Of a DNA stretch of 64,000 nucleotides, positions 9,725 through 56,004 are shown in pieces. The translations under genes were made by a program, and so were the position numbers. The stretch's first letter is position 1. Every line of letters starts with the position of its first letter. This DNA is from Octopus sinensis. Lineage: Eukaryota. Where the stretch lies: assembly GCF_006345805.1 (NCBI RefSeq), contig NC_042997.1:26288001-26352000 (forward strand), given 5' to 3'. A model generated the notes under the pieces. That model was given only the letters and a program-made list of their open reading frames with translations. It was not told the origin of the DNA and made no database searches.

Positions 9725-9838
9725 TAAGGGAGGCAACTCTTAGAAATGTGAGTTATTTCCCTTAAAACGTTTCGAGTATTTTGTAAAAGAACTCTCTTGT
9801 AAGTGAGATAAGCGTAATTCAAAAGTTGAAAATGGCGG
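9725..9838 (+). promoter_or_regulatory. Putative SMPD4 core promoter / start region
   Basis: YY1-type AAAATGGCGG overlapping the ATG (9829-9838); imperfect inverted motif pair taagggaggcaactc / gagttatttccctta at 9725-9764. Confidence 0.45.
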
Positions 9839-9867
9839 CTATGACGGGCGGTTCGTTGTCTATTCTG
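9832..9867 (+). CDS. SMPD4: SMPD4 exon 1 ([12 protein letters not shown])
   Basis: aaaATGGCGGCT start context; donor CTG|GTTTGT, phase 0, compatible with exon 2; too short for homology support. Confidence 0.65.
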
Positions 9868-12800
9868 GTTTGTGTTGAAATTAATTCTTTTTTTCTCTTT
9901 TAAACTATAAATATTTTAAACTTTACATATAACTCACCATATTTACATACATTGATGTTTATATTTTTCACTTTTCTATTACTTTTACCATGTTTTATTT
10001 TGATTACTTCCCTGCCGTTTATGCGATATTTATGTAAATATACGACCAAGGAAGGAAGGCATGACTCTTACGAATTGAACTTTTGCATCGATCTATTACA
10101 CCTTGTCTAACAGTCTACATATGAATCTCTTTGTCATAAACTCCCATTTTATTATTCTGAAAAAATAATAATAACACAAGTCAATGATATTATTTAAGGA
10201 CATTTAACAGCCTTTATTGTGCCGGCATGGATTGTACAGGTCTAACACAGCATATTGCTATGCATTTTACTTGAAAACCATCTCATTTGTGAGACCCCGG
10301 ATTCCTAAGATCTACCCTTCACCATTTCTTTATTTAAGGACATTTAACAGCCTTTATGGTTTTAGATAAACTTACAAATGATCGCTCCACTCACACCAAA
10401 TATATATTTGATAATCTTCAAATTTATTTTAAAATATGAGATACTGGATTGTTGAAAGTATTTTCTATGGAAGGGTACTGCCAGGCCCTGTTCTCTATCA
10501 CAGATGAATACCAAATGCACAAACTTATTTAATGACATAATAAATTTGGACATAAATATAACGACTACGACTCATGGTCCCGGTGCGCGCACTCGCGTAC
10601 TAGCGCATCCGCGCTAGATAGTGGTGACGAGTTGATCCTAAAACGACTACCTAGCAAAGTAAATAAAACACAAAATAAATTATTTTTTTTACACAATTTT
10701 TTTGAAAACAATATAAGTAAAACACAGAAACACAAAGTAAGTAATTTTTTTAAACAAAGTAAATAAAACAAAAACAAAGGTAAGGATCGACTAGTCACGA
10801 CTAGCCAGCGCGAGTGCGCGCACTGGGACCACTCTTCTTAAGTAGTAAGTACCCTGCCAACCTTGTCTGCAGAACAGATATTTGTTCTCTTTTACTAATC
10901 ACTGAGTAATGAAAGAGACCATATTCTTTCTGACCGGGGCTAAAGAATACCCATATGTGAGAGCTGAACGCAGGTGTTTTACGATTTAATGTTTACCTTC
11001 GGCTTGTAATGTTACCAACTTGGAAGTTTCGAGATATTTCAATCAACGTGTCTTGGAATATGTTCTTCCTTTCATTTTCTTAAGACTTTCTTGTTTCTTG
11101 AAATGGCCTTTAAACTTCTGAAGACCTCACCTCCTTTATTTTATTTTCTTTTCTTTTTCTTTTATTACAGACCCCTACCCCCCTATTTTCGAGTACGGAG
11201 ATTGTGATTCTGCAAGAAAAACGGCATTTTAAAATTTTAATCCCCCCCCCCTACTCCCTCGCAAATTTTTCAATTTTCACTTTTTTCAGAAGTTTTTCTT
11301 TTTTTTTTGCGAAATATGTATGAAAATGTGGAGATAATGATTGTAAAAAAAAAAAAATTCTGCAAAAGTGAAAATTGAAGAATTAGTGGGGGTGGGAAAT
11401 TAAAATTTTAAAATGCCTTTATTTTTTTATCATTATTATTTAGTTTTTTGGGGGGGGTTTTTTGTAGAAAAAGAATCTCTGCACTCGAAAATGGGGGATT
11501 CTATAAAAAAAAAAGAAAGAAAAAAATAACGAAAGGTCCACATTCTTTACATCTGCTATTTTCCCTAAAATATTTTAAGTTTTCTTTTTACGTTTTTGTT
11601 CCCTCACACCACCCCTTCGCTGAGCTATTATTTTTCCATGCGGTGTTGGAACATCAATTTTGTAACTCTCTGCTCAACCTGCTAGAAATAACAGCCAAAG
11701 TTCTATCAAATCCTTGCATGCTGTTAAAAAAAAGCACTGATTACAGTTAGTGATGTAGTTCTACATACAGTGTGCCTTAAAAAGTAGATAAATATATAAA
11801 CAAGCTGGTCAAAACTAGATCATCTCAGTCATGACTGACCAATAACAACTTTATTGTCAAAGCACTGTTATTCCCCTTCTATTGCATTGTACCCTCTTCT
11901 TTTGGCATCAAGTTCCCAGGCTTCAATTTTTCTTTGTCTGAATCAACAGTATCAGTATATCATCATCATCATAGTTTAACGTCCGTTTTCCATGCTAGCA
12001 TGAGTTGGACAGTTCGACCCGGGTCTGGGAAGCCAGGAGGCTGCACCAGGCTCCAGTCTGATCTGGCAGTGTTTCTACAGCTGGATGCTCTTCCTAACGC
12101 CAACCACTCTGTGAGTGTAGTGGATGCATTTTACGTGCCACTGGCACAGGGGCTAGAGGAGGTTGGTTAACGGCCACGATGGGTTGGTGCTTTCACGTGT
12201 CACTGGCACGGGTATCTTAACTACAATTTCCATTTGATTTTTATTTTGATGTTGGTGTTGACGTACTTGACTCAGTAGGTCTCCTCAAGAACAGCAGGTC
12301 GCTCTACGATCCATGGTTGGCACAGCAGGCCGTCCTGTGAGCCATGAACTCACTTCATTTGTCAGGTCTTCATAGTCACAGCATATCTCAGAGGTCTCCG
12401 TCTTCATCATTTCTTCTGTGAGGCCAGATCTGTGCTGGCATGGATTGTACAGGTCTAACACAGCATATTGCTATTCGTTTTGCTTGAAAACCATCTCATT
12501 TGTGAGACCCCGGATTCCGAAGATCTACCCTTCACCATTTCATCCTACATCTTCCTCCGTCACTGCATTCTTTTGTCAGTAGATGGCATCTCATTACTCT
12601 TTACTCAAGATCCATTCACTTCATGTATCCTTGCCAGCACTGACTTCTCTCTGTCACACATAGTCATGACCAAAAGTTTGGAACATTCTTTTTTTAAATT
12701 AAAATTGTTATATCCACCATATTACTGTAAGTGGTAATAATATATTGCAAAATGAATATAACAGGGCATTTGATGTAAAATTTCTAATTTTCAGACCCGA

Positions 12801-14255
12801 TGACTGGCATCCATGCTAGTGGAGCATTAAGAGTACCATACAAGCACAATCGTTACCTGGCACTTGTGCTGGTGGCACATGAAAAAACATTCGAGTGAGG
12901 TCGTTGCCAGTGCTGCTGGACTTGCTCCTGTGCAGGTGGCACGTAAAAAGCACCACTTGAGCATGGCTGTTGCCAGTACCGCCTGACTGGCCCTTTGTGT
13001 TGGTGGCACATAAAAGCACCCACTACACTCTCGGAGTGGTTGGCGTTAGGAAGGACATCCAACTATAGAAACTCTGCCAGATCAGATTGGAGTCTGGTGC
13101 AGCCATCTGGTTTGCTAGACCTCAGTCAAATCATCCAACCATGCTAGCAATAATGATAATATTTCAAACTTTTGGCCACAACTGTATACTGATGCTTTAA
13201 ATGCTGTGTTCACTTATGCTCCAATAATATGTGCTTATGAAATTTTGTGAAAAATGAGGAAAGAAAGTGTCAAACTGTTAGGTCCCTCTCTCTACAGACT
13301 GTTGTACCTTTTTAGTGTTGGTACAATGACACAATGTTCACTCAGTAAGGTGGTTGGTAGCAAGAAAGGCATCTGGCCATATGCCACCAGCTCAAATGCC
13401 AGTAAGGTGACGCTGGTAACGATCATATTTGAATGGTGCTTTTTACGTGCCACCGGCACAGAAGCCAGTCAGCTGCTCTGGTAGCAATCACGCTCGGATG
13501 GTGCTCTTAGCACTCCACTGGCACGGGTGCCAATATTTGTTTCTATCTCATGCTGGTAACATGTTAAAGGTACCTGTGGAGTGGTTGGCATAGAAACCAA
13601 GCCAAAACAGACGGGAGCCTGGGGCAGCTCTCCAGTTTACCAGTTCCAGTCAAACTTTCTTACCCATGGAAAATGGATGTTAAATGATGATGATGTCTTT
13701 ATGTTCTGAGTTCAGATTCTGCTCAGATTAACCCCCTGAAAGCAGTGCCTAGGATGGCCACAATCCAATGAGTGAATAAAAGCGTATGATACATGTATAA
13801 ATTTCTAATTTCTTTTTGCAGGTGGAATTCCAGAATGCTATTTCGAAACCACTGTTAAAGCGTTTTGAAATGGTGACTTCAATTATCATGAGCATAAGTA
13901 CAAAGGTAAGTACATCCTTATGGATGTTTATCTTAGTTATACTCTGAGGATCTGTAAAAGACTGGAGGTGCTTTCTCAGAGTTTTCCACCATTTATACAT
14001 TGTTCATTAACAGTATATTGGATGCCAGCATCATTTTTCTCTTCCTTCTTGCTGATATACTCTTTACTCTTTTCAGTCATTTGACTGCGGCCATGCCAGA
14101 GCACCGCCTTTAGTCGAGCAAAGCGACCCCAGAATTTATTCTTTGTAAGCCTAGTGCTTATTCTATTAGTCTCTTTTGCCAAACCGCTAAGTTACGGGGG
14201 ACTAAACACACCAGCATCGGTTTCAAGAGATGTTTGGGGTACAAACACCGAAGCA

Positions 14256-14293
<38 letters not shown>

Positions 14294-17200
14294 AAAATAT
14301 ACAACGGGCTTCTTTCAGTTTCTGTCTACCAAATCCACTCAAAAGGCTTTGGTCGCCCGAGGCTATAGTAGAAGACGCTTGCCCAAAGTGTCACGCAGTG
14401 GGAATGAACCACTCCTATACCTATATATTGATTAATAATATTAAAACTCAATTAACTTTTTTTCTTAACCCTTATACTATATGTCATTTTTTCCCAATGA
14501 AAATGTATGTAAAAGTGGAGTGTCTACTATTAGAAATAACATAGAAACTGTAGATATAAGCAGAAAAGTTGAGGTGCATACTGAAATAATTAAAGGAAAA
14601 ACTATAGCATTCATTTAGTGCTTGTTTCTCTGAATTTTCAGTGAATTTTTTTTTCTATATATGTTTCATTAGGTGAAGGCGCATGGCTCAGTGGTTAGAG
14701 CGTCGAGCTTACGATCGTGAGGTTGTGAGCTCGAATCCCGGACCGGGCTGCGTGTTGTGTTCTTGAGCAAGGCACTTTATTTCACGTTGCTCCAGTTCAC
14801 TCAGCTGTAGAAATGAGTTGCGACGTCACTGGTGCCAAGCTGTATCGGCCTTTGTCTTTCCCTTGGATAACACTGGTGGCATGGAGAGGGGAGGCTGGTA
14901 TGCATGGGCGACTGCTGGTCTTCCATAAACAACCTCGCCCGGACTTGAGTCTAGGAGGGTAACTTTCTAGGTGCAATCCCATGGTCTGTGTCGTGACCGA
15001 AGGGGGTCTTTATATGTTTCATTAAGATTAATTTTGATGTTGAAAGTTGTATGTGTGTGTCTTTTTATTTAATTTCTGTTTTGTGTTTTATGCAGGAAGC
15101 TCACCATATTTTCCCAACTATATTAGAAAGTATTTTCGGATTTGGCCATGAGCCTGGTTGGAATTTAGAATATATCAACAAGATCAAAACACCAGAAGAA
15201 TATGAATATGGCAGGGCTTTTCTGTCACCAAATGGCCCCTTAATGAAATTGGTATATCGCCTACAGTCTGATCCTTATTTATCATATGATTTCCCTTTGC
15301 ATTGTCTACCAGTAAGTATGGACATTTCGTTTTACTTTTAATGTTTTACAAACACTTAATTCTTTTGCATTTAAACTGGTCATATCAAACACAAATATTC
15401 TATGTGTTTTATGTTCAAACCAGCCAGATCAAGCCTCTCATACTTACCCTACAATGTCATTCCAAAAATAAACAATCACATGATCAACATCTGAAAACTA
15501 TGGGATAATGCATGAAGCATTACATTTGATACAGCAATCTGAATGCCTGAGAGTTAAAAATAATTTTAATTTTTCTTATACTCATGGCCCTAAAATCAAG
15601 ATTATAAATCTGTGAGGATAGTGAATCAGACAGGTTCGGCTGTGAATATATATCTATGTGTATATTTCTGTGCATAGGTGTGTGTAATTGTATGTATTTA
15701 TATATATGAATATAATATGAGACCTCTTTATTCCACAGAGATCATCCATTCAAGATCAATAAATTAAGCACCAAAGGTGGCGAGCTGGCAGAAACATTAG
15801 CACGCCGGGCAAAATGCTTAGCAATATTTCGCCTGCTTTTACATTCCGAGTTCAGATTCCGCCGAGGTTGACTTTGCCTTTCATCCTCTCAGGATTGATA
15901 AATTAAGTACCAGTTGCATACTGGAGTTGATCTAATCGACTGCCCCCCCCCTTCCCCAAAATTTCTGGCCTTTTGCCTAGAGTAGAAAAGAATAAATTAC
16001 CAGTTGAGTACTGGGGGGGTCAATGTAATCGACTAAGCCTCTCCCTCAAAATTTCTGGCCTTGTACTCAAAATTTGAAACTAATATTTGACTTCTTTTCA
16101 CTTTTTAATATATTTACTGTCTGAATTTATTCTAGGCACCAACAAGACGTTTGATTGAAGAAGGAGCTGTGCCGGTATTTTACGCCAACAAACTACAGAT
16201 GCAAGCATTTGGTCGTCCTTATCTAACTCTCAATATCCTTTTTAAATGTGCTACTACACACTTATGCATCATCATCATCGTCATTGTTTAATATCCGTCT
16301 TCCATGCTGATGATGTTTTTATTCATTTGTCTTGTAGAAACTGATTTTTTAAATTGTAAACATTTTGATGGCAGAATTGCAAAGGGTTAGACAAAATGCC
16401 TTACATCATCATCATCATCATCGTTTAACGTCCGTTCTCCATGCTAGCATGGGTTGAACGGTTCGACCGGGGATCTGGGAAGCCAGAAGGCTGCACCAGA
16501 CTCCGGTCTTATCTGGCAATGTTTCTACAGCTGGATGCCCTTCCTAACGCCAACCACTCCGTGAGTGTAGTGGGTGCTTTTTACGTGCCACCTGCACTGG
16601 TGCCAGGCGAGGCTGGCATCGGCCACGGTCGGATTGGTGTATTTTACGTGCCACCTGCACGGAAGCCAGTCGAGGCGGCACTGGCTTCGGCCACGATTCG
16701 GATTGGTGCATTTTACGTGCCACCGACACGGAAGCCAGTCGAGGTGGCGCTGGCATCGGCCACGATTCGGATAGTGCTTTTTACATATCTCCAGTTCAGG
16801 GGTCCTGGCATCTGCCGGGTGCCAGTCATAGGATTGGTTCAATTTCAATTCCGATTTAACTTGCCCCAACAGGTTTCGAAATAGCATTCTGGAATTCCAC
16901 CTGCAAAAAGAAATTAGAAATTTATACATGTATCATACGCTTTTATTCACTCATTGGATTGTGGCCATCCTAGGCACTGCTTTCAGGGGTTTCATCATAT
17001 TTATTTTTCTGATCTCTGAGGGTAATCTGAGCAGAATCTGAACTCAGAACATAAAGACATCATCATCATTTAACATCCATTTTCCATGCAGGCATGGGTA
17101 AGAAAGTTTGACTGGAACTGGTAAACTGGAGAGCTGCCCCAGGCTCCCGTCTGTTTTGGCTTGGTTTCTATGCCAACCACTCCACAGGTACCTTTAACAT

Positions 17201-20200
17201 GTTACCAGCATGAGATAGAAACAAATATTGGCACCCGTGCCAGTGGAGTGCTAAGAGCACTATCCGAGCATGATTGCTACCAGAGCAGCTAACTGGCTTC
17301 TGTGCTGGTGGCATGTAAAAAGCACCATTCAAACATGATCGTTACCAGCGTCACCTTACTGGCATTTGAGCTGGTGGCATATGGCCAGATGCTTTTCTTG
17401 CTACCAACCACCTTACTGAGTGAACATTGTGTCATTGTACCAACACTAAAAAGGTACAACAGTCTGCAGAGAGAGGGACCTAACAGTTTGACACTTTATT
17501 TCCTCATTTTTCACAAAATTTCATAAGCACATATTATTGGAGCATAAGTGAACACAGCATTTAAAGTATCAGTATACAGTTGTGGCCAAAAGTTTGAAAT
17601 ATTATCATTATTGCTAGCATGGTTGGATGATTTGACTGAGGTCTGGCAAACCAGATGGCTGCACCAGACTCCAATCTGATCTGGCAGAGTTTCTATAGCT
17701 GGATGTCCTTCCTAGCGCCAACCACTTCGAGAGTGTAGTGGGGGCTTTTATGTGCCACCAACACAAAGGGCCAGTCAGGCGGTACTGGCAACAGCCATGC
17801 TCAAGTGGTGTTTTTTGTAGGCATATTTAAATATGTCCTTAGTTTAAATCCCACCAAGGTAGACTTGGCCTTTCGTACTTCCGGAGTTGATACTAATCAA
17901 ATACTGTGATTAATTTGACTACTCTGTCCCTTACATGCAGTGATTTGATTTTTACAAATTTTCTTTGCTGCTATTTCTGGATCACCTCCTCTAATGCCCC
18001 GCACTCCATTATAGCAAGACACCTGTTTTCGCCTCTGTCCCTCTGTCACACTTTAAATCTTTTATTCTCTGACACTAGTTCCTCGCCTCAAATGCCCCTG
18101 CCCCTCTCAAAATTCTTTGTCTTGCAAGTTACTTGGTGACCCTGCCAGTGCTGGTGCCACGTAAAAAGAATCCAGTCCACACTGTAAAGTGGTTAGCATT
18201 TGGAAGGGCATCCAGCTATAAAAATCATGCCAAAACTAATTTTCCCTGTGCCAGTGCCACACAAAAAGCACTGAGTCCACTTCGATTCAATTCAATTTTT
18301 ATTGGCTCAAAAAGCAAGAGCAAGGTTATGTAGCGGGACAGAGAGTTATGTATAGGGAGGGTGGTCATGCAAAGAGTTCAGGCCATTTCTGGTCAAGAGA
18401 GTCTTTGAACCGAGCGGTCGGCGGCATCTTCACTATCTCGTCTGGCAGCTTATTCCACGGATCCGCAACCCGGACGGAGAAAGCTCCTCTTCTTTGATTT
18501 AGATGAAATCGTCATAGATAGAGCTTTGCGGAGTGACCCCGCAGCCCACGCTCTGGAGCAGGAGTGAAGAACAGCTCTTTCGAGAGGTTACACTTTCTGC
18601 TTATGATGTTGTGAGCGAGAATGAGATCGTCGTTTTTCTAGAGAATAAAGGTTGAGCGTCTTCAGCCTTTCTTCATAAGACAAATGCTTGAGACCAAGAA
18701 CTATGTGGGTAGCCAGCTTCTGGACTCTTTCGAGATGATGTATGTCTTTGAGGAGATAAGAAGAGGCTTGAATCCCGTACTCCAATATGGGTCTCACCAG
18801 TGTGACATAGAGCAGTAGGAATATGGCTGCTGTGAGCATTCTGAATGACCGTCGAATCAAAAACATCTTATACTACTCATACACAGGTTTGGCCAAAAGT
18901 CACCTGATAGTAAATCAAAACCATTTAATTCCAAGATTAAAGCAAAAAATTGTTTTATATGAGACTTCACTAATAAATAGACAAAGTTGAAAATTTAAAA
19001 AAAAAAATGAAAAACGGTGATTTTAACTCACAGCATATTCAATTATTAAACATTCATAATTGGAATGACTAAATAAAATTGAATATTAAGTATTTATGGA
19101 ATTTTGATTTACTGTCGGTTGACTTTTGGCCAACCCTGTATATATATTTCTCTTTTTATGATAAATCCTTAAATCCTTAAAAATGTTTTAGCCCGAAGGC
19201 TGCGGCCATGCTGGGGCACCACATTTTCTCACTTGATAATTTAACATTTTCCTTAACTCTTTTGTTCTTACCTCCATTTGAATTATTTCTTTTCCATTTT
19301 GCCTTTATGCTTGTGAGCCCTAAATCTAGGCTGAACTGCCCAATTTGGGGTCACTTTTCTGCTTTTTTATATCCAACTTTGGTTGAGGATTATTTAGACT
19401 ACTTGTTACCTCTGGAGAAACAGCAAATTCCAGCCATCCCTCATATGCCATCTTTGGTGCGAAGTCCTGTCATTCAGTCCCAGAATACTGGGTGAGTACT
19501 TTGTCTTACTTTTACATTTAGCTAGCAGTATCGCCTGGCATTGCTCGGGTTTGTTTCAACCCTTTAGAATTGAAATTTTTGAAAAGTAAAAATTTTGCAT
19601 TATTTAGCTTGTTATTCTCTTTAAGTGAACATTTTTCTGGTTGAAATACACCGAAAAACGGTGACACAGCCGTCAAAAAGTCGTAAAAAATAAGGATTTT
19701 CAGAGAAAAAAAGCACCTTTTTGATATAAATAATTTTTGGTCTTAACATGGTCCGATTTGAATTTTTTCTTCTATGGAAGGAAGAACAAGCCTTCTTCTA
19801 TCATACTCTCAATTTTGGTCAACTTGCACTGCAGGGTCTCGGAGTAGATAGTGTTAGTTGAAGGCTACCAAACCTGCCATACACAGACAACTTCAGCTTT
19901 ATATATATAGATTAGTTTCTCATGTGAAAGACACGAGTGTCGTACTTTCCTTCCTCTTCTCCAATAATTTTTCTACTCTGTTGCTCAGCATGATATTCTT
20001 ATTCTTGATGCTTACTACTAAAGTAGAATAATTATATTGTTGGTTTAAAGCTTGAACAAATGCAGCCAGTAAAACAGCACCAGTAATATGAGGCACAAAT
20101 ATGTCCTGTAAGTTTAAAAGTTCAGCTGATCAACACATGCAAGTATGGAAAAGTGGACACTAAACAGCGATGATAATATTTTTTGCTAGGAGTAATATAA

Positions 20201-23200
20201 AGTGTAGTGTTCTGCATTGGTTATACTTCATTAGTTCACATTCAGAGGATGAGAGTTCAAATAATTTTCAGACTAGATTGTGATATTGTTTTTTGAATCA
20301 TCATCATCGTTTAACGTCCACTTTCCATGCTAGCATGGGTTGGACGATTTGACTGAGGGCTGGCGAACCAGATGGCTGCACCAGGCTTCAATCTTGATCT
20401 GGCAGAGTTTCTACAGCTGGATGCCCTTCCTAATGCTAAACACTCTGAGAGTGTAGTGTCTGCTTTTACGTGCCACCAGCACTGGGTCAGTCAGGCGGTA
20501 CTGGCAACGACCTCGCTTGAATCTTTTTACACATGTCACTGGCACAGGTGCCAGTAAGGCGATGCTGGTAATGATCACGCTCGAATGATGCCTTTTACAT
20601 GTCACTGGCGCAGAGGTCAGTTAGCCGCTCTGGCAACGATCACGCTCAGATGGTGCTCTTAGCATCCTACTAGCACGGGGCTCATGTGCCAGTAAGGCGA
20701 TTCTGGTAACAATCACACTTGAATGGTGCCTTTTATGTGCCACTGGCACGGAAGCCGGTTAGCTGCTCTGTCAACGATCACACTCGTATGGTGCACTTTG
20801 CACTCCTCTAGCACGGATGCCAGTCATCGATTTTGATTTCACTTGCCTTGAAACAATAATTTTCTTTATATCTTTTACCTTCAAGTAATTAAAATAAAGA
20901 AACGCCTATGTTATCTTGGTACTAAGTCTCATTGTTATTTCTATTTCCAGTTCACCAATCCAATCCAGTCACTCGTCTGTTTCTCCAAAATACATTCCTG
21001 GTCTTCGATTATTCAAATCCAGTGTTGTCACTGCTCAGAAACAACCTTTCAAATCTCCATCAGTCCTTGATCAATCTGGTACAGAAATGTGGCATTCGGA
21101 AGCCCTTATTCAGGTAAAACTTTAAGAAACATACTTTACATTTTCCAATTCAGTGTCTGTTTCTTTATTCATTATCAATTTCATATTTTACATTCAGTCA
21201 TCCTTTTTTCATTGTGAGAAAATTACAGGTGGATAATCTTCTGTTTTTATAGTGAAGTAGCTTTTTTCATAAGCTTGAATTACTGTGAAACTTCCCCTAA
21301 AAATGGCAATATATGGCATGGCAAATTGGGCATTTGATATTTTGACATTCTTTTATCTTTTACTTGCTTTAGTCATTGGACTACAACCATACTGGGGCAC
21401 TGCTGTGAAGAATTTTAGTTGAGCTAATCAATCCTAATACATATTTTAATTTCTGCCTTGCTCGACTGCTAATATGTAAACAAACCAACACTGATTGTCA
21501 AATGATAGTGGGGGACAAACACAAAGACACACATATATACATATATCATCATCATCATCATCATCATCATGATTAATGTCCATTTTCCATGCTGGTGTGG
21601 GTCGGACGGTTTGACTGAGGTCTGGAGAGCCAGTGGCTGCACCAAGTTCCAATCTGGTCTGGCAGAGCTCCTACAGCCGGATGCCCTTCCTAACACCAAC
21701 CACTCCAAGAGTGTAGTGGGTGCTTTTTATGTGCCACTGGCACAGGGGCCAGTAAAACGTGCCTGACAATGATCATGTTTGAATAGTGCTTTTTATATGC
21801 CACCGGTGCAGGAGCCAGTCAGTGGGTACTGGCATCAGTCACGATCGGTTGGTGCTTTTTATGTGCCACCAGCACAGGAGACACTTAGGCGGACCTGGTA
21901 TCGACCATGTTCAGATGGTGCTTTTTACGTGCCACCGGTACAGGAGCCAGTCAGGGGACACTGGCCCCGCTATGATATTAATTTTACTTGACACAACAGG
22001 TCTTCTCTAACATATCATATCGCCTGACACATGAGAAGTATTCTTAACAAGGCTGTAAGTGCGTGGCTGCGATCTCACTTTAGTTGCCGGGTCTTTTCAA
22101 TAACAGCATAACTCCAAAGGTCCTGGTCTCCTGTCATTGCCTCTGTGAGGCCCAATGTTCGAAGGTCATGCTTCACCACCTCATCCTATGTCTTTCTGGG
22201 TCTACCTCTTCCACAGGTTCCTTCTACAGTTAGGGAGTGGCACTTCCTCACACAGCTCTCTTAATTCATACCTAACACGGGACCATACCAGCACAGATGC
22301 CTCTCTTGCACACCACATTTGATGCTTCTTATGCCCAATATTTTATACTCAGGGCCCTTATGCTCTGTCATGTATGCACACTGACATTACACATCCAGCA
22401 GATCATACTAGCTTAATTTCTTTCAAGCCTACGCATGTCCTCAGCATTAATGGCCCATGTTTCACTGCCACGTAGCATGGCAGTTCACACACATGCATCA
22501 TACAGTCTACCTTTCACTCTGAGCAAGAGGGCCTTAGTTGCCCGCAGAGATAAAGGCTCCTTGAACTTTGCCCAGGCTATTCTTACTCTAGTCGCTGCAC
22601 TCTCAGAGCAACCACCCCCACTACAGACTTGGTTGCCTAGATAGCAGAAGCTATTAACTACTAGTTTCTTCCCCTGGCATGTGATGCCCTAACCCTAAAA
22701 CCTTAAAGCTAAAACCTGAACAAATGCACAAACGATGTCATAAATAATAGTGACAAACGAAAAATACACCACCAATAGTTGTTGTTGACAAACGACGGCA
22801 GTAATTTTATTCAGCTGAATACACGTCATTGATTGGTTGAAATTACCGAAATATGACAACTTTAACATGAAATAACTTCATAAACATAAAGTTTTCTCAA
22901 AAACGCTAAGAATAAAAGATATTTTATATGAAACATTATACCAGTATACGAAGTTTGAAAGTGTTTGGTTACAAAAAATTATTTTCTAAATCTGCTGGTC
23001 AAATGGTAAAGATCCCTAAAACCTGATGGTCGATTGTGTAATTGCATTGAAACTTAATTATGTTGAGAATAAATTAAAGCTAATGGGCCTAATTACCTCG
23101 TGTATTAAAAAGTTACTTCAGTCATGTTCTAACTGTGACATCTTAAAACCTAAAGCCTAAACTAAGAGTCATAAAGAAAATCTATTTATGTTGTGTATCT

Positions 23201-26200
23201 GTGTTTGCTTTTCCTGCTGCTGACCTTTTCATAAACTTTTGTTAATCATTTTTGGTTTTTACTTGATTTATTTTCATTTAGGTATTTTCTGATTTTTGGC
23301 TGAATCAGAACTCTGCAAATGTCAACCAACTTGGTGTTTTGTATCAAAATGAGGTGAGTTTATTTATTTATTAATATTTTTTCATTATATTTGTGCATTT
23401 GCTATCTGAAGTTTGGTGAAAATTAGTACCTTAGAATTGCCAAATACACAAGGCTGAAAAGTGACCACATCTTGTATATGGTTAAATATACAGGTTTATA
23501 TATATTTAGTTATTTACTAAAATGTATTAAAATAGGCGCAGGAGCGGCCGTGTGGTAAGTAGCTTGCTTGCCAACTACATGGTTCTGGTTCAGTCCCACT
23601 GCGTGGCACCTTGGGCAAGTGTCTTCTACTATAGCCTTGGGCCAACCAAAGCCTTGTGAGTGGATTTGATAGATGGAAACTGAAAGAAGCCCATCCTATA
23701 TATCTATATATATATATGTGTATATGTTTGTGTGTCTGTGTTTGTCCCCCAGCATCGGTTGACAACCGATGCTGGTGTGTTTACGTCCCCGTAACTTAGC
23801 GGTTTGCAAAAGAGATCAATATGATAAGTACTTGGCTTACAAAGAATAAGTCCTGGAGTCGATTTCTTCAACTAAAAGGCGGTGCTCCAGGATGGCCATA
23901 GTCAAATGACTGAAACAAGTAAAAGAGTAAATATCTGTCCTGATGATGTCAATTGGCAGAATTGTCAGAGTGGAAGATTTTGCTTTGTGTTCAGGCTCTT
24001 TGCATTCTGAAGATAATGTCTGCTTTGACACTCAAGCGAAGTTCTATCATTTCTTATCTTTCCTGTGAGCAATAACAGTGACATAGTGAGGGGAGACTGG
24101 CATGCACAGACTACTGTTGATTTTTCAGCAAAAGTAAAGCCCAGGCCTGCATTCTGGGGAGTAACTTTTCTCAGCTTAAATCCAGTCTCAGAGGATTTTG
24201 AAACCCCAGGAAGATTAAAAGTGCATAGATACAGAGCGTATCTGCAAATGACATTATTCTTTTACTTGCTTCAGTCATTTGACTCTGGCCATGCTGGAAC
24301 ACCGCTTTTAGTCGAGCAAATCGATCCCAGGACTTATTCTTTGTAAGCCTAGTACTTATTCTATCGGTCTCTTTTGCCGAACCACTAAGTTACACTAACA
24401 ACCTCGCTCGAATGTTTTTTCATATGCCACTGGCACAGGTGCCAGTAAGGCGACACTGGTAACGATCATGCTCGAATGGTGCTTTTTACGTGCCACTGGC
24501 ATGGAAGCCAGTTAGCCGCTCTGGCAACGATCATGCTCAGATGGTGCCCTTAGTGCTCCACTAGCACGGATGCCAGTCATCAAATTTAATTTCGATTTCG
24601 CTTGCCTCAGCAGGTCTTCGCAAGCAGAGTTTAGTGTCCAACGAAGGAAAGGTTTGCATAACTCTATTTTATTCAGTCAGATGACTCTGTCAAAACTATG
24701 GAAGGATTGAAAGAACAGAAATGTTGGAGTCTGGCATTTGGATAGCACAAGCCTAATATTATGATTAGCCAATTGGTTATGTTATGAAAAATTATGTCCT
24801 GAATAACAAGATGACTAGAAGCTTTCTATCTTTCTCTTCCCTCTACTCTTTCTCTTTTCTCTTCACTTGCTCTCTAATCCTATACATTAATGCATTTTAT
24901 CAAGTGATAAAGAACATTTTATTTTTCTGTGCAATTACAATAACAACTAAATTCATTTGGGTTACTTTTGAATTCAGATTGACATTCTTTTATGTTCTTA
25001 AATTATTTTGTTTCCCTCTTTTGCTGCAGGAATTATATGTACCGACAATCAACCACATTCGAATAGCACGGGTGCTTGTAAAACATCTGCACTATTTTGT
25101 GAACAGTGCATTACCTCCAATATCATCACCGCCTTACTACCAACAGCTCCCCACATCAATTGATCAATTCAAAAAGTGAGCTGCCTCCAAATTTTTTTTC
25201 CCTCTTGTTAACTACCGTAAATCCTCGAGTATAGTCCGCCCTTGAGTATAATATGCAGGGTATTTTTAGGGGGCTGTACCTTTGAAAAATCTAAACCTTG
25301 TGTATAATACGCACCCCTTCTCTAACTTGTGTCGTGCGTAATTAAGCCAGCAGTACCTAGTCGAACAAACACTTCTGCGCATGCGTAATACAATAATGGT
25401 GATGTTCTTAACTGTTATATGGGAATGTAAATATGTTTGCAAATTGTTTTAGTTACATGTTATTCTGTGTTCTGAATACTTTTATTTTAATAAATGTTGC
25501 TTACTGCAAGTTATGTATGATTCTTTTATGACTTTCCGGGTTAGCTTAAGGTATTTTCGCACCTGACATCACAAAATGCATCTGAATAAACATTGCCAGA
25601 CAGCAAAGAGAGACTCGGACACTGCTTAGAAAATATTTTTCATTTTTAACCTCGTATATAGTACACACTAGGGATTTTGGCCTTTAAATTTTGGGAAACA
25701 AAGGGGATTATACTTGAGGATTTTTGGTAATTTCACAGTAATTTTGTGTGTTTGTATTTATTTATATTAATGTGTTGATGTTTATTTAAGAGCAAAGACA
25801 ATTCAGTTTTCAGTATAAAAAAAAAATCATATTCGTTTTGATTATGTATTTAACATTTTCGTTTTGTTAGTTAAATTCTCTCTTTTAATTACTAGGACTA
25901 CAGTTCTTGGAATCATTCAGAAGCGCCTTTATACATTTTTACGTCATGCTTTCCACTGGTGGCCACTGGATTCTTCATTTCGATTGGTAAGGTCATTTTG
26001 GGTGTATGTTTGTTTTTCTTTTAGCTGTATATAATTTTTTCTATTGATTTCATTGTTGCTTATCCCAGGCCATCCATAATTAAATAGACCTACAATGAAC
26101 TGCATTCTAGCCTTGACTATCACCTTTTCTTAATGCATAATGTATCTAAGACTACATTATCAAATGTTCTTTTTAGGTTGTAGTCTGGGGTATTTTCTTT

Positions 26201-29200
26201 GTGGTTACAATCCACAGGTCTACCTACAAGTTCAGGTGATCTCTAGACTTTTCAAGATGCACCAGGTTATTGCAAATAAAATTAGACTACAGTTCTTGGT
26301 CATAATACATGATATGAATAATGAAACCAGATTGAAAAAATTCCTCTATAAGGTTTATCATCTCTCAATATTTACAGTACTATGTCATGTTATCTTTGGC
26401 GTCCTTGTCGGTGACACATAAAAAGCCCCAACCGATTGTGGCCATTTGCCAGCCTCCTCTGGCCCCTCTGCTGGTGAAACGTAAAAAGCACCCACTACAT
26501 TCACGGAGTAGTTGGCGTTAGGAAGGGCATCCAGCTGTAGAAGCACTGCCAGATCAGACTGGAGCCTGGCACAGCCTCCTGGCTTCCCAGACCCCGGTCG
26601 AACCGTCCAACCCATACTAGCATGGAAAACGGACGTTAAACGATGATGATGATGATTAGTCATTTAGTTAGTCAATCAATCACCTAAGTTTGTCAAAGTT
26701 CTTGATTATACCCAACTTCTGTTGGTTTCTTTCTGTTTTCTATTCAGCTAATTTTTCTTTGTGCTTATTTTCTTCTATGACATTGTATTCCTACAGCTAT
26801 TAGAGACCTGGTTAAGTTACATTCAGCCTTGGCGCTATGTTAGCCAAACTAAGCCTAACTTACGGAGTAATAATGAAGAGGATGATAATGCAATTATACA
26901 AGACAGATGGTAAGTTCTTTTATATGTATCTTCACCCCATAGATATGTAACTGAAGGTAGATCTTGAGAAAGATTTGAGAAGACTGTTTTACAAATACTC
27001 TTTCTTGACAGATTAATTTTGGCATTGCCAGTTTTGGTACTGTTTTTTTTTTTTTTTTTTTTTTTTTGTAATTGTGTACATTTTTGTTGTCACCAGAGAT
27101 TTGGCCTTTGGTTACTCTGGGGATCAGATTCCTGATAGTGTCATTTGTTAATTCCTCACCAGACAATTTTCAATTGTCGTTAAATCATGCATTGTAAAAA
27201 CGTTTTTCTTTTTCTCTTTCCTTTAAGAAAGTATATCAACTGATTATTCATAGTTAAAAAAAACACACAAATTTACACACAATGGCCCAGTGATTAGGGC
27301 AGCGGACTCGCGGTCATAGGATCGCGGTTTCGATTCGCAGACTGGGCGTTGTGAGTGTTTATTGAGCGAAAACACCTAAAAAGCTCCACAAGGCTCCGGC
27401 AGGAGATGGTGGTGATCCCTGCGGTACTCTTTCACCACAACTTTCTCTCACTCTTACTTCCTGTTTCTGTTGTACCTGTATTTCAAGGGGCTGGCCTTGT
27501 CACTCTTTGTGTCACGCTGAATATCCCCGAGAACTACGTTATGGGTGCACGTGTCTGTGGAGTGCTCAGCCACTTACACGTTAATTTCACGAACTGGCTG
27601 TTCCGTTGATTCGGATCAACCGGAACCCTCATCGTCGTAACCGACGGAGTGCTTCCATATCAACTGATTGATGTCAGTCATCGTGGTTCAGTATATTTAA
27701 GTAAAGGTCATCATTATCAAGTTTATTTAACATCCATGTTCCATGCTTGCATAGGATGAACAGTTTACCAAGATCCAGTGGGCCCAAGAACTGCATTCTG
27801 CTCCGGTGTTTGCTTTGGCATTGTTTCTCTAGCTCTATGCACTTCCTGACACCAACCAACTCACAGAGTGTACTGGGTGCTTTTTCCATGCCACCAGCAC
27901 TTATGAGGTTGTTATGCAGTTTACAGGTGTATACACTATGGATTATAAATTAGAATTATAAATAGACAACTATCAATTAGAAAACAGTTATTGTTGCATT
28001 GTGAATGATATCAAATGGTAGCATCTGAAACAGTGACTAACTTTTTCGTCAGCTATTTGTTGGGAAATCAATTTACTTGACTTTGGTTGTCCCTATGAAA
28101 GTAGTCCCTGGATCTAATTAGAATTTTAAAAATATTATTTGCTAGAAATAGAGAATCTATTGGTTAAATGCTTTGAAATGTAGGTTCATCATGCTAAAAT
28201 TAGAAAGGTCAGTTTCAACAGCTGTTTTCTCTCTGTAGCTGCTGTGCAGTATATTACATTGTATAGTTTTTAATAGCATAGGTCCAAACCATTTTGGAGG
28301 AATAGTCTGTACCCATGATCTTTGCAGTACCTCTAAGACTGGTGAGTTGAATTGACATGGTTGATGCATCGCTTGAATATTTATAAATAGAAAGTGGTAG
28401 AAAAAAACAAGAGCAGAGTGGGCATTCTTGAAGAATGACATTTTTAGTGAGAGAATCTTTTCTCCTAATCATTAGTCATGATGGTTAATGAAAACTAGAG
28501 GAGTGGTGGGCTCATGTAAGTAAAGTAATGAGTGGAGGAGAGACAAGTTGTTTTTTGTTATGTTTATTATAATTTAATCTAATTTCAGGTACAGTTTTGT
28601 TGTTGATAACTTACTGTTCTACTCTGCAATTTTCCATCAAATTCTGCCACGTTTCTTCCGAATGGATCTTACTTCTCCCCACAATGCTTACATGATGTTC
28701 AGAATAACAAAGGTGAGCTTTGATACATGATGTTTTGTTTTTAATAAAATTAACCCTTTGACATTTAAACCGGCCATATCTGGCCCAAAATATTCTACCT
28801 GTTTTACATTCAAACTGACTGGATCCAGCCTCTTACATTAATCCTACAATGCCATGCTAAAAATAAGCAATAACATCATCAAAATCTCAAAGCTACAAGA
28901 TAATGCATGATTGATTTAAATCAACGTAAATAAATAAGCATTACACTTGACAAAATAATCTGAATACTAAAGGGCTAATGCATAGAAGTAGAATGATATG
29001 TTGGTAGGTAGGTATTGGGTATTGTATTTAAATTTCCACAATAAGTACAAAAGTATACTTACAAGAATATACATGATACTAAAAAGTACTATGTCATGTT
29101 ATCTTTGGATACTCAACATTCTTGTCAAAGCTGTGGCAATATGTTGATCTTCTTGTAGTAACATAGTGCACTTTATTTGGCACTTCCAGTGCCGCTGGAC

Positions 29201-32200
29201 TGGCTCCTGTGCAGGTGGCACATAAAAAACACCATTTGAGCATGGCCATTGCCAGTACCACCTGACTGGCCTTCATGTCAGTGGCACGTAAAACCACCCA
29301 CTACACTCTCAGAGTGGTTGGCATTAGGAAGGGCATCCAGCTGTAGAAACTCTACCAGATCGAGATTGGAGCCTGGTGCAGCCATCTGGTTCGCCAGTCC
29401 TCAGTCAAATTGTCCAACCCATGCTAGCATGGAAAGGGACATTAAACGATGATGATGATGATGTCCACACATGCTCCTTTATTTCAAACTGCAATTCACA
29501 CTCTTAAAATAAGTAAGGAAAGCAAGACAGGATAGTGGGTGTATATATATATATATATAGGTATAGACAAAGATTATAAATAAAATCCACGAATGCTGAA
29601 ACAGCTTATATCAGAATATGACATTCACTGTGTAACTGTCACAAAGATAATGCTCTTAGTTAGGTGGGTCTCAAAGGGGCATTAGCCAGCCCCTGAGGAG
29701 CACTGGCTGCTGTAGCAGTAGATGCAAAGTAAGGAGGCGTAACATCAGAGAGCCAGATGCTGAAGTGGGTGACTTGTTTTGGATGCAGTTTTGGTTATCT
29801 GAATGTGAAATAGCAGCATTTATTCCAAATGTAGTTTCAGTATTTCAGTGTGGATTTTGGTTGAGCTTTGTAAAGGGTTGATAATTGTTGGGGACTGAAG
29901 TATTTTCTGATCCTGGAAAGGAAAGCCGGTCATTTCTGATTCTGGGATTGTCTCGGTGAGATATCGTGGCCTCGTATTTATAGTGTTCTGGATAGATCCC
30001 TTAGGTGTGGAGCTAACTCTGTGGTACATTGTTTAAGAGTAATGAAAGGGACACTGATAGGGTCAGTGGCTGGTTTGAAGCAAAGACAGTTTCACCTTTG
30101 GCATGTAAGTATACATGTTGATGAGCTAGATGGAGTATAGTGTAAAGTGCTCCTACTTTAAAAAATTATGCAAGATTTTCTGAATGAATCAATATTTTAC
30201 AGTTTCATAAAAATTATAGGAAAATATATTTTATTTTATTCTTTTACTTGTTTCAACTAATTCACTGAGACAGTTTCTATTTATTTCGAACACCTCTGTT
30301 ATTTTTTAAACTTTCGATAATGATTTAGTCACAGATTTTTTTTGTAATTATAGCTACTTATGAAATCTTCATTAAACTAGATATTCTCTCTCTCTCTCTT
30401 TTATTTAATCATAAATGTAGCTATGACATATTTTATTAACCCTCATTGGTTAATTACCATATTCTTCAGTTATATCAGAATACTGAATGCAGTCTGAATA
30501 TTGTTTTTGTCCCTTTTTTTACCTCTTTCTAGGTGTTCAGCAATCCTAACCTTGTAGCTATGCTTCACAAAGGTTTGTGAAATACCCTTATTTTTAATTA
30601 TTCGGTTATTTATTAAGTCTGTATAAGGGTGTGTGTATGGGTATGTGTGCATGTAGATGTGTGTATTTGAGGGGGTGTTTATGTGAGAGAGTGTGCATAT
30701 TCCTCTTGCTTTGACATGTGCATGCTGATTGTAAACAAAAGTCACCTTCATACAAATGGTGTCATTTGTTTATAACTCCCTAGAAAAGCACGTCCAATGT
30801 TTGTTGTTTGGGAACAGATAGGGGTTGGCAACAGGAAAAACCCCCAGGTTTCATCAGACCCATGCAAGCATGGAAAAGTGGACATTAAATTGATAAAGCA
30901 AGAGTATAATGGCTGAAATATAATGAATGGGGTTAGAGGGTGGGAGATGTGGTAACTGAATAATTAATATCAATAATGAGTAATTTCGCTGTGAAGGAGT
31001 GAAGACTGACAATTCAGAATAGAGATGATGTATAGTGTATGGGATATAAATAGATTTTACACTGTCCTTTATACATAGGCCTCATGATGGATGAGAGAGG
31101 TAGAGTGGTAATGATTGGGGTGGTAGTGTTTTGGAATTGAGTGTGGATAAAACTAGTGCCATCCTTTGTTATTTGGTTGACGAGGAGTAGAGAATAGGAG
31201 AGAGGACAAGAGGGTCAGACAGATGAAGTACTGACCTAAGTCAGCATTGTGCAGTGAATACAAGAGATTCACTGTCATCTCAGATTATATAGGCAATGAA
31301 CAGAAGAGAGGATGTGTGGATTGCATGATAGAGATAATAGATTGTTAAGGAGGCAGGTGGGAGGGCAAATGTAGATTTGATGGGGACGTTATATACCAGA
31401 TACCCTACCTCCTAGCCTCCTTCACTACCTTCATTTTAATGTCAGCTTAGACAAGCATACCTGGGTGGAGTGAATTACCGTATGTTCCGTACATGGTCGA
31501 TGCCAGCGCCACCTTGACTGGCTCCAGTGCCAGTGGCATGTAAAAAGCACCAACTGATTGTGGCCGTTGCCAGCCTCCCCTGGCACATAAAAAGCACCCA
31601 CTACACTCACGGAGTGGTTGGCGTTAGGAAAGACATCCAGCTGTAGAAACACTGCCAGATCAGACTGGAGCCTGGTGCAGCCTCCTGGCTTCCCAGACCC
31701 CAGTTGAACCATCCAACCCATGCTAGCATGGAAAACAGACTTTAAACGATGATGATATTTACCATGGTCCTTTGTTATCTCTTGTCAGCATCTAGAACAG
31801 TTCAACTGAGGCTAGTTAGGCAGAGGATTGCACTAAGCTCCAGTATCTGCTTTGAAATGGTTTCTATAGTTCAATGGCCTTCCTTATGTCAACCACTTTA
31901 TAGTGTGTACTGGGTACTTTTCATGTGGCACTGGCATTTAGTGGGGTCACTAACTCGCAAGACAAGGAGTCGGGAGTGGAATTGAAGGAGGTGATTTATG
32001 CCTGACGATGAGAGGCTGAAATATGATAGGACAGAAACAGCAGTGTCTTGCCATGGAGAAGATCTGTGGTTTCCTTTAGTAACCTTACATTATGTATTTT
32101 TTATGTGGCTGGGAGTTTTCACTGTTATGCTAATGACCACAAAATTACTATTGTAATCTTAGTTATCACAATTATATTGTCCTATTAATTTAAATGATAC

Positions 32201-33597
32201 CATGATTGGAACCTGTGGGATATTTTAGACGTAGGAGTGGCTGTGTGGTAAGTAGCTTGCTTACGAATCACATGGTTCCGGGTTCAGTCCCACTGCATGG
32301 CACCTTGGGCAAGTGTCTTCCACTATATCCTTGGGAGTGGATTTGGTAGACGGAAACTGAAAGAAGCCCATCGGTTACAATAGAATGTATTGACATTAGC
32401 GAAAAAGATGTCCTACTAGCCATAGATGAAGTGGACACAAACTCAGCTGCTGGTCCAGACGGTTTCCCAGCCATCCTCCTCAAAGCGTGAAAGCATGCCC
32501 TGGCAAAACCCCTCAAGATTCTCTTCCAGAGCTTTCTTGCGAATGGCAAACTGCCAAGCAAGCTGAAGGAGGGAATAATATGCCCAATACATAAAGGGGG
32601 AGGTAGAGCAGATGCCAAAAACTATAGGCCTATCTCTCTGACTTCACACATCAGCAAAGTCATGGAACGGATAGTCAGAAAGAAACTAATCGCATTCCTT
32701 GAGGAAAATAACTTGCTGAGTAATACCCAGCATGGTTTTCGACCAGGTAGGAGCTGCCTGACCCAGCTCTTACAGCATTATGACTGAATATTAAACTTAC
32801 AGGATACACCGGTCCACAGGGAATTTCAATCCCAGAGCCTAAGTCTGTGAGGGACCTGGGTATCGACATGAGTGATGATACCTCTTTCCAAGTGCACATT
32901 ACCAGGATGGCGACAAAGTGCAGACGACTGGCTGGGTGGATCCTAAGAACATTCAGAACCAGAGATAAGGAAACCATGATGGTCCTCTGGCAGATATTCG
33001 TCCTCAGTCGTCTGGATTACTGCTCACAGCTATGGTCAACCACCAGTGTAAAATTAACAGCGGACCTTGAAGCAATCCAGAGAAGATTCACAAAGAAGAT
33101 CGTCTCTTTGCAACAGCTCAGCTACTGGGAAAGGTTGAAACAGCTAATACTCTACTCCCTGGAGAGAAGACGGGAGAGGAATGCAGTAATATATGTCTGG
33201 AAGGAATAGTGCCAAATTTTGGCATTGTAAGCTACACCAATGCTAGAATGGGACGACACTGCATAGTGCCAAAGATCCCAGCAATACCATCATGCTTCAG
33301 GACCAGCTTCTGCAACAGCCTGGGTTTCAAGGGCCCACAGCTTTTTAATATTCTCCCAAAGAGTCTGAGGAACTTGCACAAAGTAGATGTAGCGGTTTTT
33401 AAATCAAAGCTGGACATCTTCCTGTCAAGAGTCCCAGATGAACCTACCTCACGGCAAGAGGTGCAAATGAGAGTAGCTGTATCAAACTCCATTCTTCACC
33501 AAGTGCCACATATTAGACGAGGTTCGTCGTAATAACAGTGTGGCACAAAACGGCGGTGCATCAGCATGGCCGCAGCTCTGAGCTGAAACTAGAAAAA

Positions 33598-33628
<31 letters not shown>

Positions 33629-34817
33629 GATATATAGGTATATATATATATAGATATATAGGTATATATATATATAGGTATATAGGTATATATATCCATA
33701 TATACACATATACACACATTGCTTAAATATATACATTACTCTTACACACATTCAATCTACTCGCCATTAATACTACCACGACACTGGACACACACACACA
33801 CTACTACTCAACACACGCTGGCACGCTACATACGCCCCCACCCCTTCCCCTCCCTCCCTTCCTCTTTCCTTCTTTTTCTTACTACTGACCACTGTCTGCT
33901 TGCCTACCACTGTCTCGCCCTACCTCACACGCCTACACACAGACGCACACTAACACATACATATATTTTTTGTTTTTTTATCTCGCCTCACACACACACA
34001 TACACACACGCACACGCACACACTCACACATACACACACATATGTTGCGTTACCAACCTTGTCTCCACTCTTTGGCTTTAAAAACCTACTTTGCTCTTGT
34101 TATCGTAAACGTCCGCCTTTCACCATGTGTAACTCGTAAACACCAGTCGTTTTTTTTCTCTATCCCTGTTGCCCGCTTTGGGATCTTTCTTTCCTCTCTC
34201 TTCCTTCTTTTTATGTTTCCGACGAAGAGCTCCGCTCGAAACGTCATACCTTCCTGCTTCCATTCCTGAGCGCCTATTAATAATAATACTGTAATTGTTC
34301 CATTGTTGTTGTTTTTTTGTTTTCCCGTTTGGATTAAAATTATATATATATATGTGTGTATGTATATGTATAATGTATATATATATTATATTATATATAT
34401 ATATATATATGTATATGTGTATGTATATGTATATATGTGTATGTATATGTATATATGTGTATGTATATGTATATATGTATATATATATATGTATATATGT
34501 GTATGTATATGTATATATATATATGTGTATATATATATGTATATATATATGTGTAGATATATGTATATATATGTGTATATATATGTGTATATATATGTAT
34601 ATATGTGTATATATATATGTGTATATATATATGTGTATATATATGTGTATATATATATATGTGTATATATATGTGTATATATATATATGTGTATATATAT
34701 GTGTATATATATATATGTGTGTATATATATGTGTATATATATGTGTATATATATATATGTGTGTATATATATGTGTATATGTATATATATGTGTATATAT
34801 ATATATATGTGTGTATA

Positions 34818-34862
<45 letters not shown>

Positions 34863-37800: not shown

Positions 37801-39391
37801 TCAGAGCACCCCACTCCACTTCTAGCTTGGTCACCTAGATAACAGAAGCAATTCAGTACCTGTAGTTTGCCCACCTAGCAGTTGATGCAGTCTGTTTACT
37901 GCACATTTTCAGTGGTTATTGTACCTGTGCATCTTCCACATACAAAAGCTAGTTTCCCTGTTAACCTTCCATTGATATTGCTGCACATTTTGTGTGTCCA
38001 AAGCTTACACCAGGTGCATCTTATGGAGTTTCTACTTATTCCTTTTCTACAGATTGTGCAGGCTCATCTGTCAGAAGGGATTTGTGATCTGGCTCCCTTC
38101 TTACTAAGACTTTGGTCTTTACTAGGTTATCTCTAAGGCCCTTTGATTCTAGGCCTTGTTCCTATACCTGGAACGTCTCTAGTTCTGGTAGTGATTCAGC
38201 AATAAGAGCAAGGTCATCAGTATAGAGGAACTCCCAGGGGCAGTCTGTTTTAAATTCCTCTGTTATTACCTGGAGGACTATGATGAACAAAGGAGAGGGG
38301 GTGGTGCTGAGCACCGATCCTTGGTGAACCCCTACTTGTACCCTGAATTCTTCACTATTCATTGCCAGCCCTCACCTTACTGGTAGCATCCCTGTACTTG
38401 GCTTGTACAGCCCTCACCAACCATTTGTCTATCCCTAGTTTGTGCATTGACCACCAGATAAGGGTTCAGGGGACCCTGTCATAGGCTTTCTCCATGTCAA
38501 CAAAAGCGAAGTACAGAGGTTTATCTTTGGCTAGGTATTTCCCCTACAGCTGTCTTACCAGAAATATAGTATCAGTTGTGATTCTTCCTGGCACAAAACC
38601 AAACTGCTTCTCTTCTAGGCTAACTCTCTCTCTTTCTCCAGGACTTTCATCACCTAATCAAAACAATTTGATGTTTGTGATTTGCATTTTTTCTGTTTTA
38701 TCTTTGACAGGTCCGGAAATTACTGATAAACATTGCCCATGCCAAAAAAGAAGTTAGAGCTTCTGAACAGGCTGAGAAGTCATCACAGTTTAATTTTCCA
38801 ACCATTTGGTTAAAAATGGCATCTTTTTTCAACCCTAACAACTTTTCTGGTGATAGTGATTCCATTGAACTACAGAGGAAGACCAGGCAACATTTGGAGA
38901 TGGTAGAAAACCAGTTACAATATATATTTGATGTAAGTATGCTTCAGACTACACACACACACATCATCATTTAACATCTTTCTATGCTAGCATCGGTCAA
39001 GCAGATTGTCACAGTCCAAGTTTTTTCTGTTTTGGAGATCTTATTGCTCTTTCCATTGACTGATGCTTCTGGTGTTTCACTTGTGTTACTTGGTTTGGTT
39101 TCTGTAGCTGGATATCCGTTTCTTTACTACCCACAAGGGGCTAAACATAGAGGGGACAAACAAGGACAGACAAACGGGTGAAGCCGATTACATCGACCCC
39201 AGTGCGTAACTGGTACTTAATTTATTGACCCTGAAAGGATGAAAGGCAAAGTGGACTTGGGCGGAATTTGAACTCAGAACGTAACGGCAGACGAAATACG
39301 GCTACGCATTTCGCCCGGCGTGCTAACGATTCTGCCAGCTCGCCAGCATATCCTTGACTGTAGCTGGATATCTTTGACTTACATACATGCT

Positions 39392-39427
<36 letters not shown>

Positions 39428-44108: not shown

Positions 44109-44163
<55 letters not shown>

Positions 44164-55834: not shown

Positions 55835-56004
55835 CTGGAAAAGAGTTAGAAAGCGAAAGGGATAGAAAGAATGAAAAACAATCTTTTTAAGATATATTGT
55901 AAATAATAAAATATACAAGAAATACAAACAAAACTTTAAAAGGAACGATTCTGTTTTAAATGTTTTCTTGCTTTTTACGGCATTGTCAGAAGCGGACCTC
56001 AGAC

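Follow-up and report, generated by a model that had tools for sequence, protein, structure and literature searches.

An AT-AC intron with complete U12-type signals in octopus SMPD4, likely orthologous to the minor intron of human and mouse SMPD4

Introduction

An intron that begins with AT and ends with AC raises the question of which spliceosome removes it and whether the same intron is found in distant relatives. We addressed this question for the fourth intron of SMPD4 (16233..19271, plus strand), which lies in a 64,000-nucleotide (nt) stretch of Octopus sinensis DNA (contig NC_042997.1, positions 26,288,001 to 26,352,000 of the forward strand). This whole stretch is hereafter called the window, and all positions are counted from its first letter. 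An earlier note, made from the sequence alone, had proposed that the intron is a canonical U12-type AT-AC intron that had absorbed several repeat insertions. An AT-AC intron with complete U12 signals is confirmed at this SMPD4 junction. Furthermore, we hold with high confidence that the intron carries perfect U12 signals for predicted removal by the minor spliceosome, and that it is a likely ancient orthologue of the human and mouse SMPD4 minor intron, of differing subtype and swollen by repeats.

Results

SMPD4 gene model and the exon 4–exon 5 junction

The coding span of SMPD4 (9832..45343, plus strand) comprises 17 exons and 2460 nt including the stop codon, and encodes 819 amino acids (aa) with matches to PF14724. 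The spliced translation was identical to the O. sinensis SMPD4 record P0001 at 819/819 residues. When seven open reading frames (ORFs) were scanned with Pfam, PF14724 was found on three SMPD4 exons, with two matches above the curated cut-off and the third below it, and the domain was present in all 88 homologues of the octopus protein that we found. The assignment of the gene to SMPD4 in the earlier note is upheld by these three exons and by the identity of the spliced coding sequence.

Leu144 is the last complete codon of exon 4 (16136..16232, plus strand, 97 nt), which stops in phase 1. Exon 5 (19272..19491, plus strand, 220 nt; PF14724 E 3e-7) follows and matched three named cephalopod SMPD4 proteins. 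The SMPD4 protein of Argonauta hians, which comes from a separate genome, showed 88% identity and the same junction peptide (YLTL-TPFE) as that of O. sinensis.

Splice signals of intron 4

Intron 4 is 3039 nt long and lies in phase 1. It opens with the U12 5' splice site ATATCCTTT (16233..16241, plus strand), which is unique in the window on both strands, carries the U12 branch site TTTTCCTTAAC (19247..19257, plus strand; branch adenosine predicted at 19255 or 19256) and ends with the 3' splice site AC (19270..19271, plus strand). The donor, which we found at 16233 as the earlier note had placed it, matched RTATCCTTT at 9/9 positions and the branch site TCCTTAAC matched TTCCTTRAC at 9/9, whereas the other 15 SMPD4 introns, all GT-AG in the 17-exon model, matched at 3-6/9 and 5-7/9, respectively; none of these 15 qualifies as a second U12 intron. 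Counting both strands of the window, the 9-mers RTATCCTTT and TTCCTTAAC have a single occurrence each, in both cases at intron 4.

The intron ends 14 nt after the end of the branch motif, inside the 10-20 nt U12 range, and there is no AG between the branch site and the terminal AC. The earlier statement that the branch site ends 14 nt before the terminal AC is correct when counting through the AC, but 12 nt separate the motif from the AC itself. The donor and branch site consensus and the branch spacing follow the available portion of PMC8199999; that is, the description of these elements as minor-spliceosome consensus signals was borne out. By an order-2 Markov estimate, the chance of donor, branch site and AC coinciding at a junction fixed by the protein is ~8e-11. 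In addition, scoring matrices derived from the U2 introns of SMPD4 itself, a small training set, gave intron 4 negative scores. Both the donor and the branch site lie in non-repeat sequence. A weaker AT donor-like site, ATATCCGT, lies within a repeat remnant at 16291-16299, 58 nt downstream of the intron start.

Genes for U11, U12, U4atac and U6atac are all listed for O. bimaculoides (PMC11347168), and the supplement of the same study catalogues 401 minor introns in that species. The window itself gave 0 Rfam matches to noncoding RNAs at the gathering threshold, and hence no minor small nuclear RNA (snRNA) genes among them.

Alternative boundaries and a possible GT-AG bypass

Within 15 nt of each end, 16233^19271 was the only boundary giving the annotated protein, without slippage. 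Across a wider search range, 1/482 canonical dinucleotide pairs gave this protein, and the junction motif was likewise obtained from 16233^19271 alone. A filter over the 482 pairs kept 42 that were in frame and stop-free and had, in addition, a GT donor, an ATATCC donor or a length within 6 aa. Stop-free in-frame GT-AG pairs numbered 28, none of which restored the motif. If intron 4 is retained, a stop codon is reached 19 codons into the intron.

The earlier claim that no GT-AG pair gives the homologous protein holds insofar as 0/28 pairs restore the motif, but one of these pairs, 16175^19387, is the splice junction of an isoform annotated in O. vulgaris. Its cryptic GT donor lies inside exon 4 (16175..16176, plus strand) and pairs with a weak cryptic AG acceptor inside exon 5 (19386..19387, plus strand). 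Under a matrix trained on the U2 introns of SMPD4, the donor had the top score of 14 nearby GTs, and the acceptor ranked 7/12 among AGs. Use of this pair keeps the frame and deletes 58 aa, a segment in which 6 positions are conserved in >=80% of 58 other named homologues. In the available portion of PMC6717393, cryptic U2-type splicing around minor introns likewise involves a paired cryptic donor and acceptor that bypass the intron; the octopus case differs in that its two cryptic sites lie within exons and that its product, which stays in frame, is known only from one isoform annotated in O. vulgaris. The 16175^19387 junction may be either a real, low-level bypass by the major spliceosome or an annotation artefact.

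The junction motif across homologues

The earlier note had stated that splicing restores a conserved L.L.PFE motif. We counted residues in 61 named homologues of the 88, leaving aside 25 unnamed records and 2 redundant isoforms. The frame and the positions L144 (kept in 52/61), F147 (49/61) and E148 (50/61) agree with that statement, but the proline does not, as position 146 is P in 15/61 and A in 37/61. Eight of the 61 were gapped or aberrant at the junction, five of them gastropod records (P0020, P0028, P0031, P0034 and P0036) and one the O. vulgaris isoform; P0071 and P0084 are likewise gapped or aberrant there, and some of these are partial records. This pattern suggests that gene predictors may have missed the same hard-to-annotate intron in other species.

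Relation to the minor intron of human and mouse SMPD4

Human SMPD4 and mouse Smpd4 are listed as minor-intron genes, with one minor intron per gene, in the supplement of PMC6717393, which gives the donors as TGA|GTATCCTTT in human and TCA|GTATCCTTT in mouse and the lengths as 109 and 100 nt, respectively. In the Olthof 2019 and 2024 supplements, the human intron is at chr2:130172678-130172786 (ENST00000409031) and the mouse intron at chr16:17626539-17626638. The human intron was responsive in 4/9 minor-spliceosome-inhibition or disease datasets, and the mouse intron, graded 'minor', in 1/6 (PMC11347168 supplement). The rarity implied by the earlier note is therefore overstated, since SMPD4 is a minor-intron gene in human and mouse and the junction was already in the O. 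sinensis record; among human minor introns, the AT-AC share is ~26%.

The donor core TATCCTTT is common to the human, mouse and octopus introns, and mouse and octopus also have the same -3 to -1 flank, TCA. The sequence flanking the vertebrate donors is compatible with a Leu codon and the first A of Asn in phase 1, the phase found in octopus. In the variant table of PMC9149365, 5/6 human exon boundaries have a counterpart among the octopus introns (2, 3, 10, 12 and 13), with agreeing phase and steadily rising offsets at the five matched boundaries. Human Pro192, a reported disease missense site (PMC9149365), maps onto the motif proline by the frog spacing from the intron-3 proline. Based on the matching donor flanks, phase, frog spacing and shared exon boundaries, we infer that human, mouse and octopus likely share one ancient minor intron at the same phase-1 position, Leu|x-P-F-E, with a GT donor in mammals and AT-AC termini in octopus. 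The comparison with orthologues suggested in the earlier note pointed, by indirect mapping, to a shared position, with a likely difference in terminal subtype.

The introns differ in other respects as well. The vertebrate introns measure 100-109 nt against 3039 nt in octopus, and their branch sites are degenerate (scores of 77 in mouse and 60 in human), whereas that of octopus is perfect. Orthologous U12 introns with differing subtypes form 36 clusters in the accessible part of PMC2831892; the switched introns described there have differing termini, as appears to be the case for octopus and mammalian SMPD4. We did not find SMPD4 in the supplements of PMC6865273, PMC7367187 or PMC2831892, and a literature search, which covered papers rather than figures or online minor-intron databases, found none describing a subtype difference in SMPD4. 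The intronIC survey (PMC10639083) included O. sinensis.

Repeat content of intron 4

Matches elsewhere in the window cover 2324/3039 nt of intron 4, which bears out the repeat insertions reported earlier; the names given to them then (RTE, CR1, MITE and SINE) are putative family labels. A short tail remnant of a long interspersed nuclear element (LINE) lies at 16264-16312. It is followed by the 5'-truncated 3' end of a LINE with a (GAT)n tail (16404..16878, minus strand), which we take to be RTE-like; this fragment aligns with 49498-50079, part of an element with an ORF similar to a reverse-transcriptase ORF in the window. A second LINE fragment (18302..18865, minus strand), presumably CR1-like, has 86% DNA identity to 1212-1787 and protein similarity to LINE-like ORFs of the window. 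Next to it is an element resembling a miniature inverted-repeat transposable element (18879..19143, strand unassigned), with 42-nt terminal inverted repeats whose arms are 88% complementary.

Closest to the branch site is a short retroelement tail fragment (19160..19226, minus strand), with four related matches of 22-27 nt elsewhere in the window. The earlier note had placed a tail of a LINE or a short interspersed nuclear element ~25 nt upstream of the branch site; the fragment does end 20-24 nt before it, but lies in minus-strand orientation, with tail repeats that face away from the branch site. On the plus strand, the fragment contains two branch-like motifs (7/9) at 19165 and 19173. Together with the AGs that follow, ending at 19191 and 19198, the stretch 19165-19198 resembles a U12 3' end and may be a decoy; splicing from the normal donor to either AG would shift the frame.

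An antisense copy of the gene's own exon-2 acceptor region

The inverted duplication noted earlier in intron 4 is present, but its source, the gene's own exon-2 acceptor region, had been missed. The segment 16868..17816 (minus strand), fused to the truncated LINE, duplicates in antisense the end of intron 1, the acceptor and 29-35 nt from the start of exon 2. Its source at 12945..13856 (plus strand) comprises the last 877 nt of intron 1, the acceptor at 13820-13821 and the start of exon 2. Copy and source form the strongest self-match in the window and are identical at 893/910 aligned columns (98%), with 14 transitions, 3 transversions and 3 gaps. An origin in assembly or read errors is unlikely, as 14/17 substitutions are transitions and only 3 gaps occur. 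That the sequence originated in intron 1 follows from the repeat at the left edge of the source, which runs on past 12945 in intron 1 but breaks off in the copy.

On the minus strand, the copy joins the truncated LINE directly via a short microhomology, and the LINE is not resumed past 17817. No target-site duplication was found around the LINE and copy, the best candidate being an off-register 5-mer; a 7-mer candidate was found in only 3/21 other copies, a comparison of low power. The flanks of the insert (16390-16403 and 17817-17830) form short inverted rather than direct repeats, as if it had landed in the middle of a near-palindrome. LINE chimeric insertions, as described in the available portion of bioRxiv 10.1101/2025.02.02.635956, carry a same-sense piece of a cellular transcript 5' of a truncated LINE and its tail, as here; the octopus copy differs from them in that the piece would come from an unspliced host-gene pre-mRNA and lies antisense, 3 kb from its source. 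The segment 16404-17816 could thus be a LINE template-switch chimera. Because no target-site duplication was found, in what is a weak test, DNA-level templated repair is as plausible.

The two arms are predicted to form a pre-mRNA duplex of ~910 bp that covers the exon-2 acceptor. Skipping of the 84-nt exon 2 would keep the frame and remove 28 aa; 7/10 of the exon-2 adenosines within the predicted duplex would recode if edited. Such a long RNA duplex could invite adenosine-to-inosine (A-to-I) editing or skipping of exon 2. Two findings weigh against a large effect: the exon-2 acceptor and the copy are 3047 nt apart, so that intron 1 may already have been removed when the copy is transcribed, and exon 2 is kept in all annotated cephalopod proteins.

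Other features of the window

A 598-aa open reverse-transcriptase ORF (6086-7882, plus strand; Pfam RVT_1 E 3e-33) lies ~2 kb upstream of the SMPD4 start and is likely a young LINE. Beyond SMPD4, a tandem repeat block at 46227-47353 has copies 80-98% alike, and a long exon of a potassium-channel-like gene (54726-55886, minus strand), presumably of the two-pore type, matches Pfam Ion_trans_2 (E 4e-24) in two stretches.

Discussion

Several points weigh against reading intron 4 as a minor-spliceosome intron shared with vertebrates. The record P0001 was probably annotated from the same species and is thus not independent evidence, and the evidence for minor snRNAs comes from a congener, O. bimaculoides. 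The human SMPD4 intron is graded only 'minor-like' (PMC11347168 supplement). The position of the vertebrate intron was mapped indirectly, from 3 flanking nt, phase logic and the frog spacing. The vertebrate terminal subtype was read from the donors, which begin with GT against AT in octopus. No subtype switching was seen in the available portion of an insect survey (PMC3291851), so it is not frequent. Finally, 16175^19387 is the exact junction of the annotated O. vulgaris isoform X2 (P0003).

This last point bears on the alternative that the main transcript uses the GT-AG pair 16175^19387 through the major spliceosome, with the AT-AC intron as a minor or vestigial route. The isoform, the rank of 16175 as the best U2-like donor nearby and the common occurrence of paired cryptic sites around minor introns, as far as the accessible part of PMC6717393 describes it, speak for this alternative. 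We nevertheless regard it as highly improbable, because the bypass would remove the conserved positions of the 58-aa segment, which the O. sinensis and Argonauta records retain, its acceptor is weak, and perfect U12 signals that go unused would likely decay. It is also conceivable that intron 4 belongs to the U2-dependent AT-AC introns known from some sodium-channel genes. Such introns exist, and the 3' end of intron 4 is pyrimidine-rich; however, those described in the available part of PMC2831892 have G at +5, whereas intron 4 has C at +5 and +6, and its branch site matches the U12 consensus at 9/9 with U12 spacing, which leaves this explanation a negligible probability.

A further alternative concerns orthology rather than splicing; i.e., the octopus U12 intron may be independent of the vertebrate one, at another position or newly gained, perhaps with signals derived from repeats. 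The differing terminal subtype, the 30-fold difference in length, the branch-like motifs in the nearby repeat tail and a vertebrate position mapped indirectly rather than from the vertebrate gene sequence all favor it. A derivation of the branch site from that tail was rejected, as the branch site is in non-repeat sequence, and we consider an independent origin very unlikely.

The difference between the octopus and vertebrate introns likely reflects known subtype switching together with transposon-driven expansion. In the usual view, switching proceeds from AT-AC to GT-AG, and the proposed switch in SMPD4 may have followed this direction. On the reading of an ancient, shared minor intron, the donor ATATCCTTT would be recognized by U11 and later by U6atac, and the branch site by base pairing with U12. 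The acceptor would be the first dinucleotide at a suitable distance, the AC ending 14 nt on, so that Leu144 is joined to Thr145-Pro-Phe-Glu. Slow removal of intron 4 may limit SMPD4 output, as retention leads to the early stop codon, and the major spliceosome may at times splice around intron 4 through the cryptic exonic GT-AG sites, with the loss of 58 aa. Intron 4 is an ordinary case: it belongs to a known class, in a gene already known to have a minor intron, and has probably been catalogued before.

We also considered a more speculative proposal, in which a LINE returned a piece of SMPD4 pre-mRNA antisense into the minor intron and the dwell time of that intron would set how far exon 2 is hidden or recoded by A-to-I editing, making the locus a young switch of both editing and splicing, created by a retrotransposon and tied to the minor spliceosome. 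We judge this unlikely.

Intron 4 extends a minor intron catalogued in vertebrates to the cephalopods, in a species whose protein record already has the junction. It is one likely added case of an AT-AC versus GT subtype difference, which would be useful for polarising switching given more invertebrates, and its junction flags an annotation trap across SMPD4 homologues. If it is true that the antisense self-copy alters the editing or inclusion of exon 2, SMPD4 would show, by a concrete and testable example, how cephalopods acquire new editing-complementary sequences.

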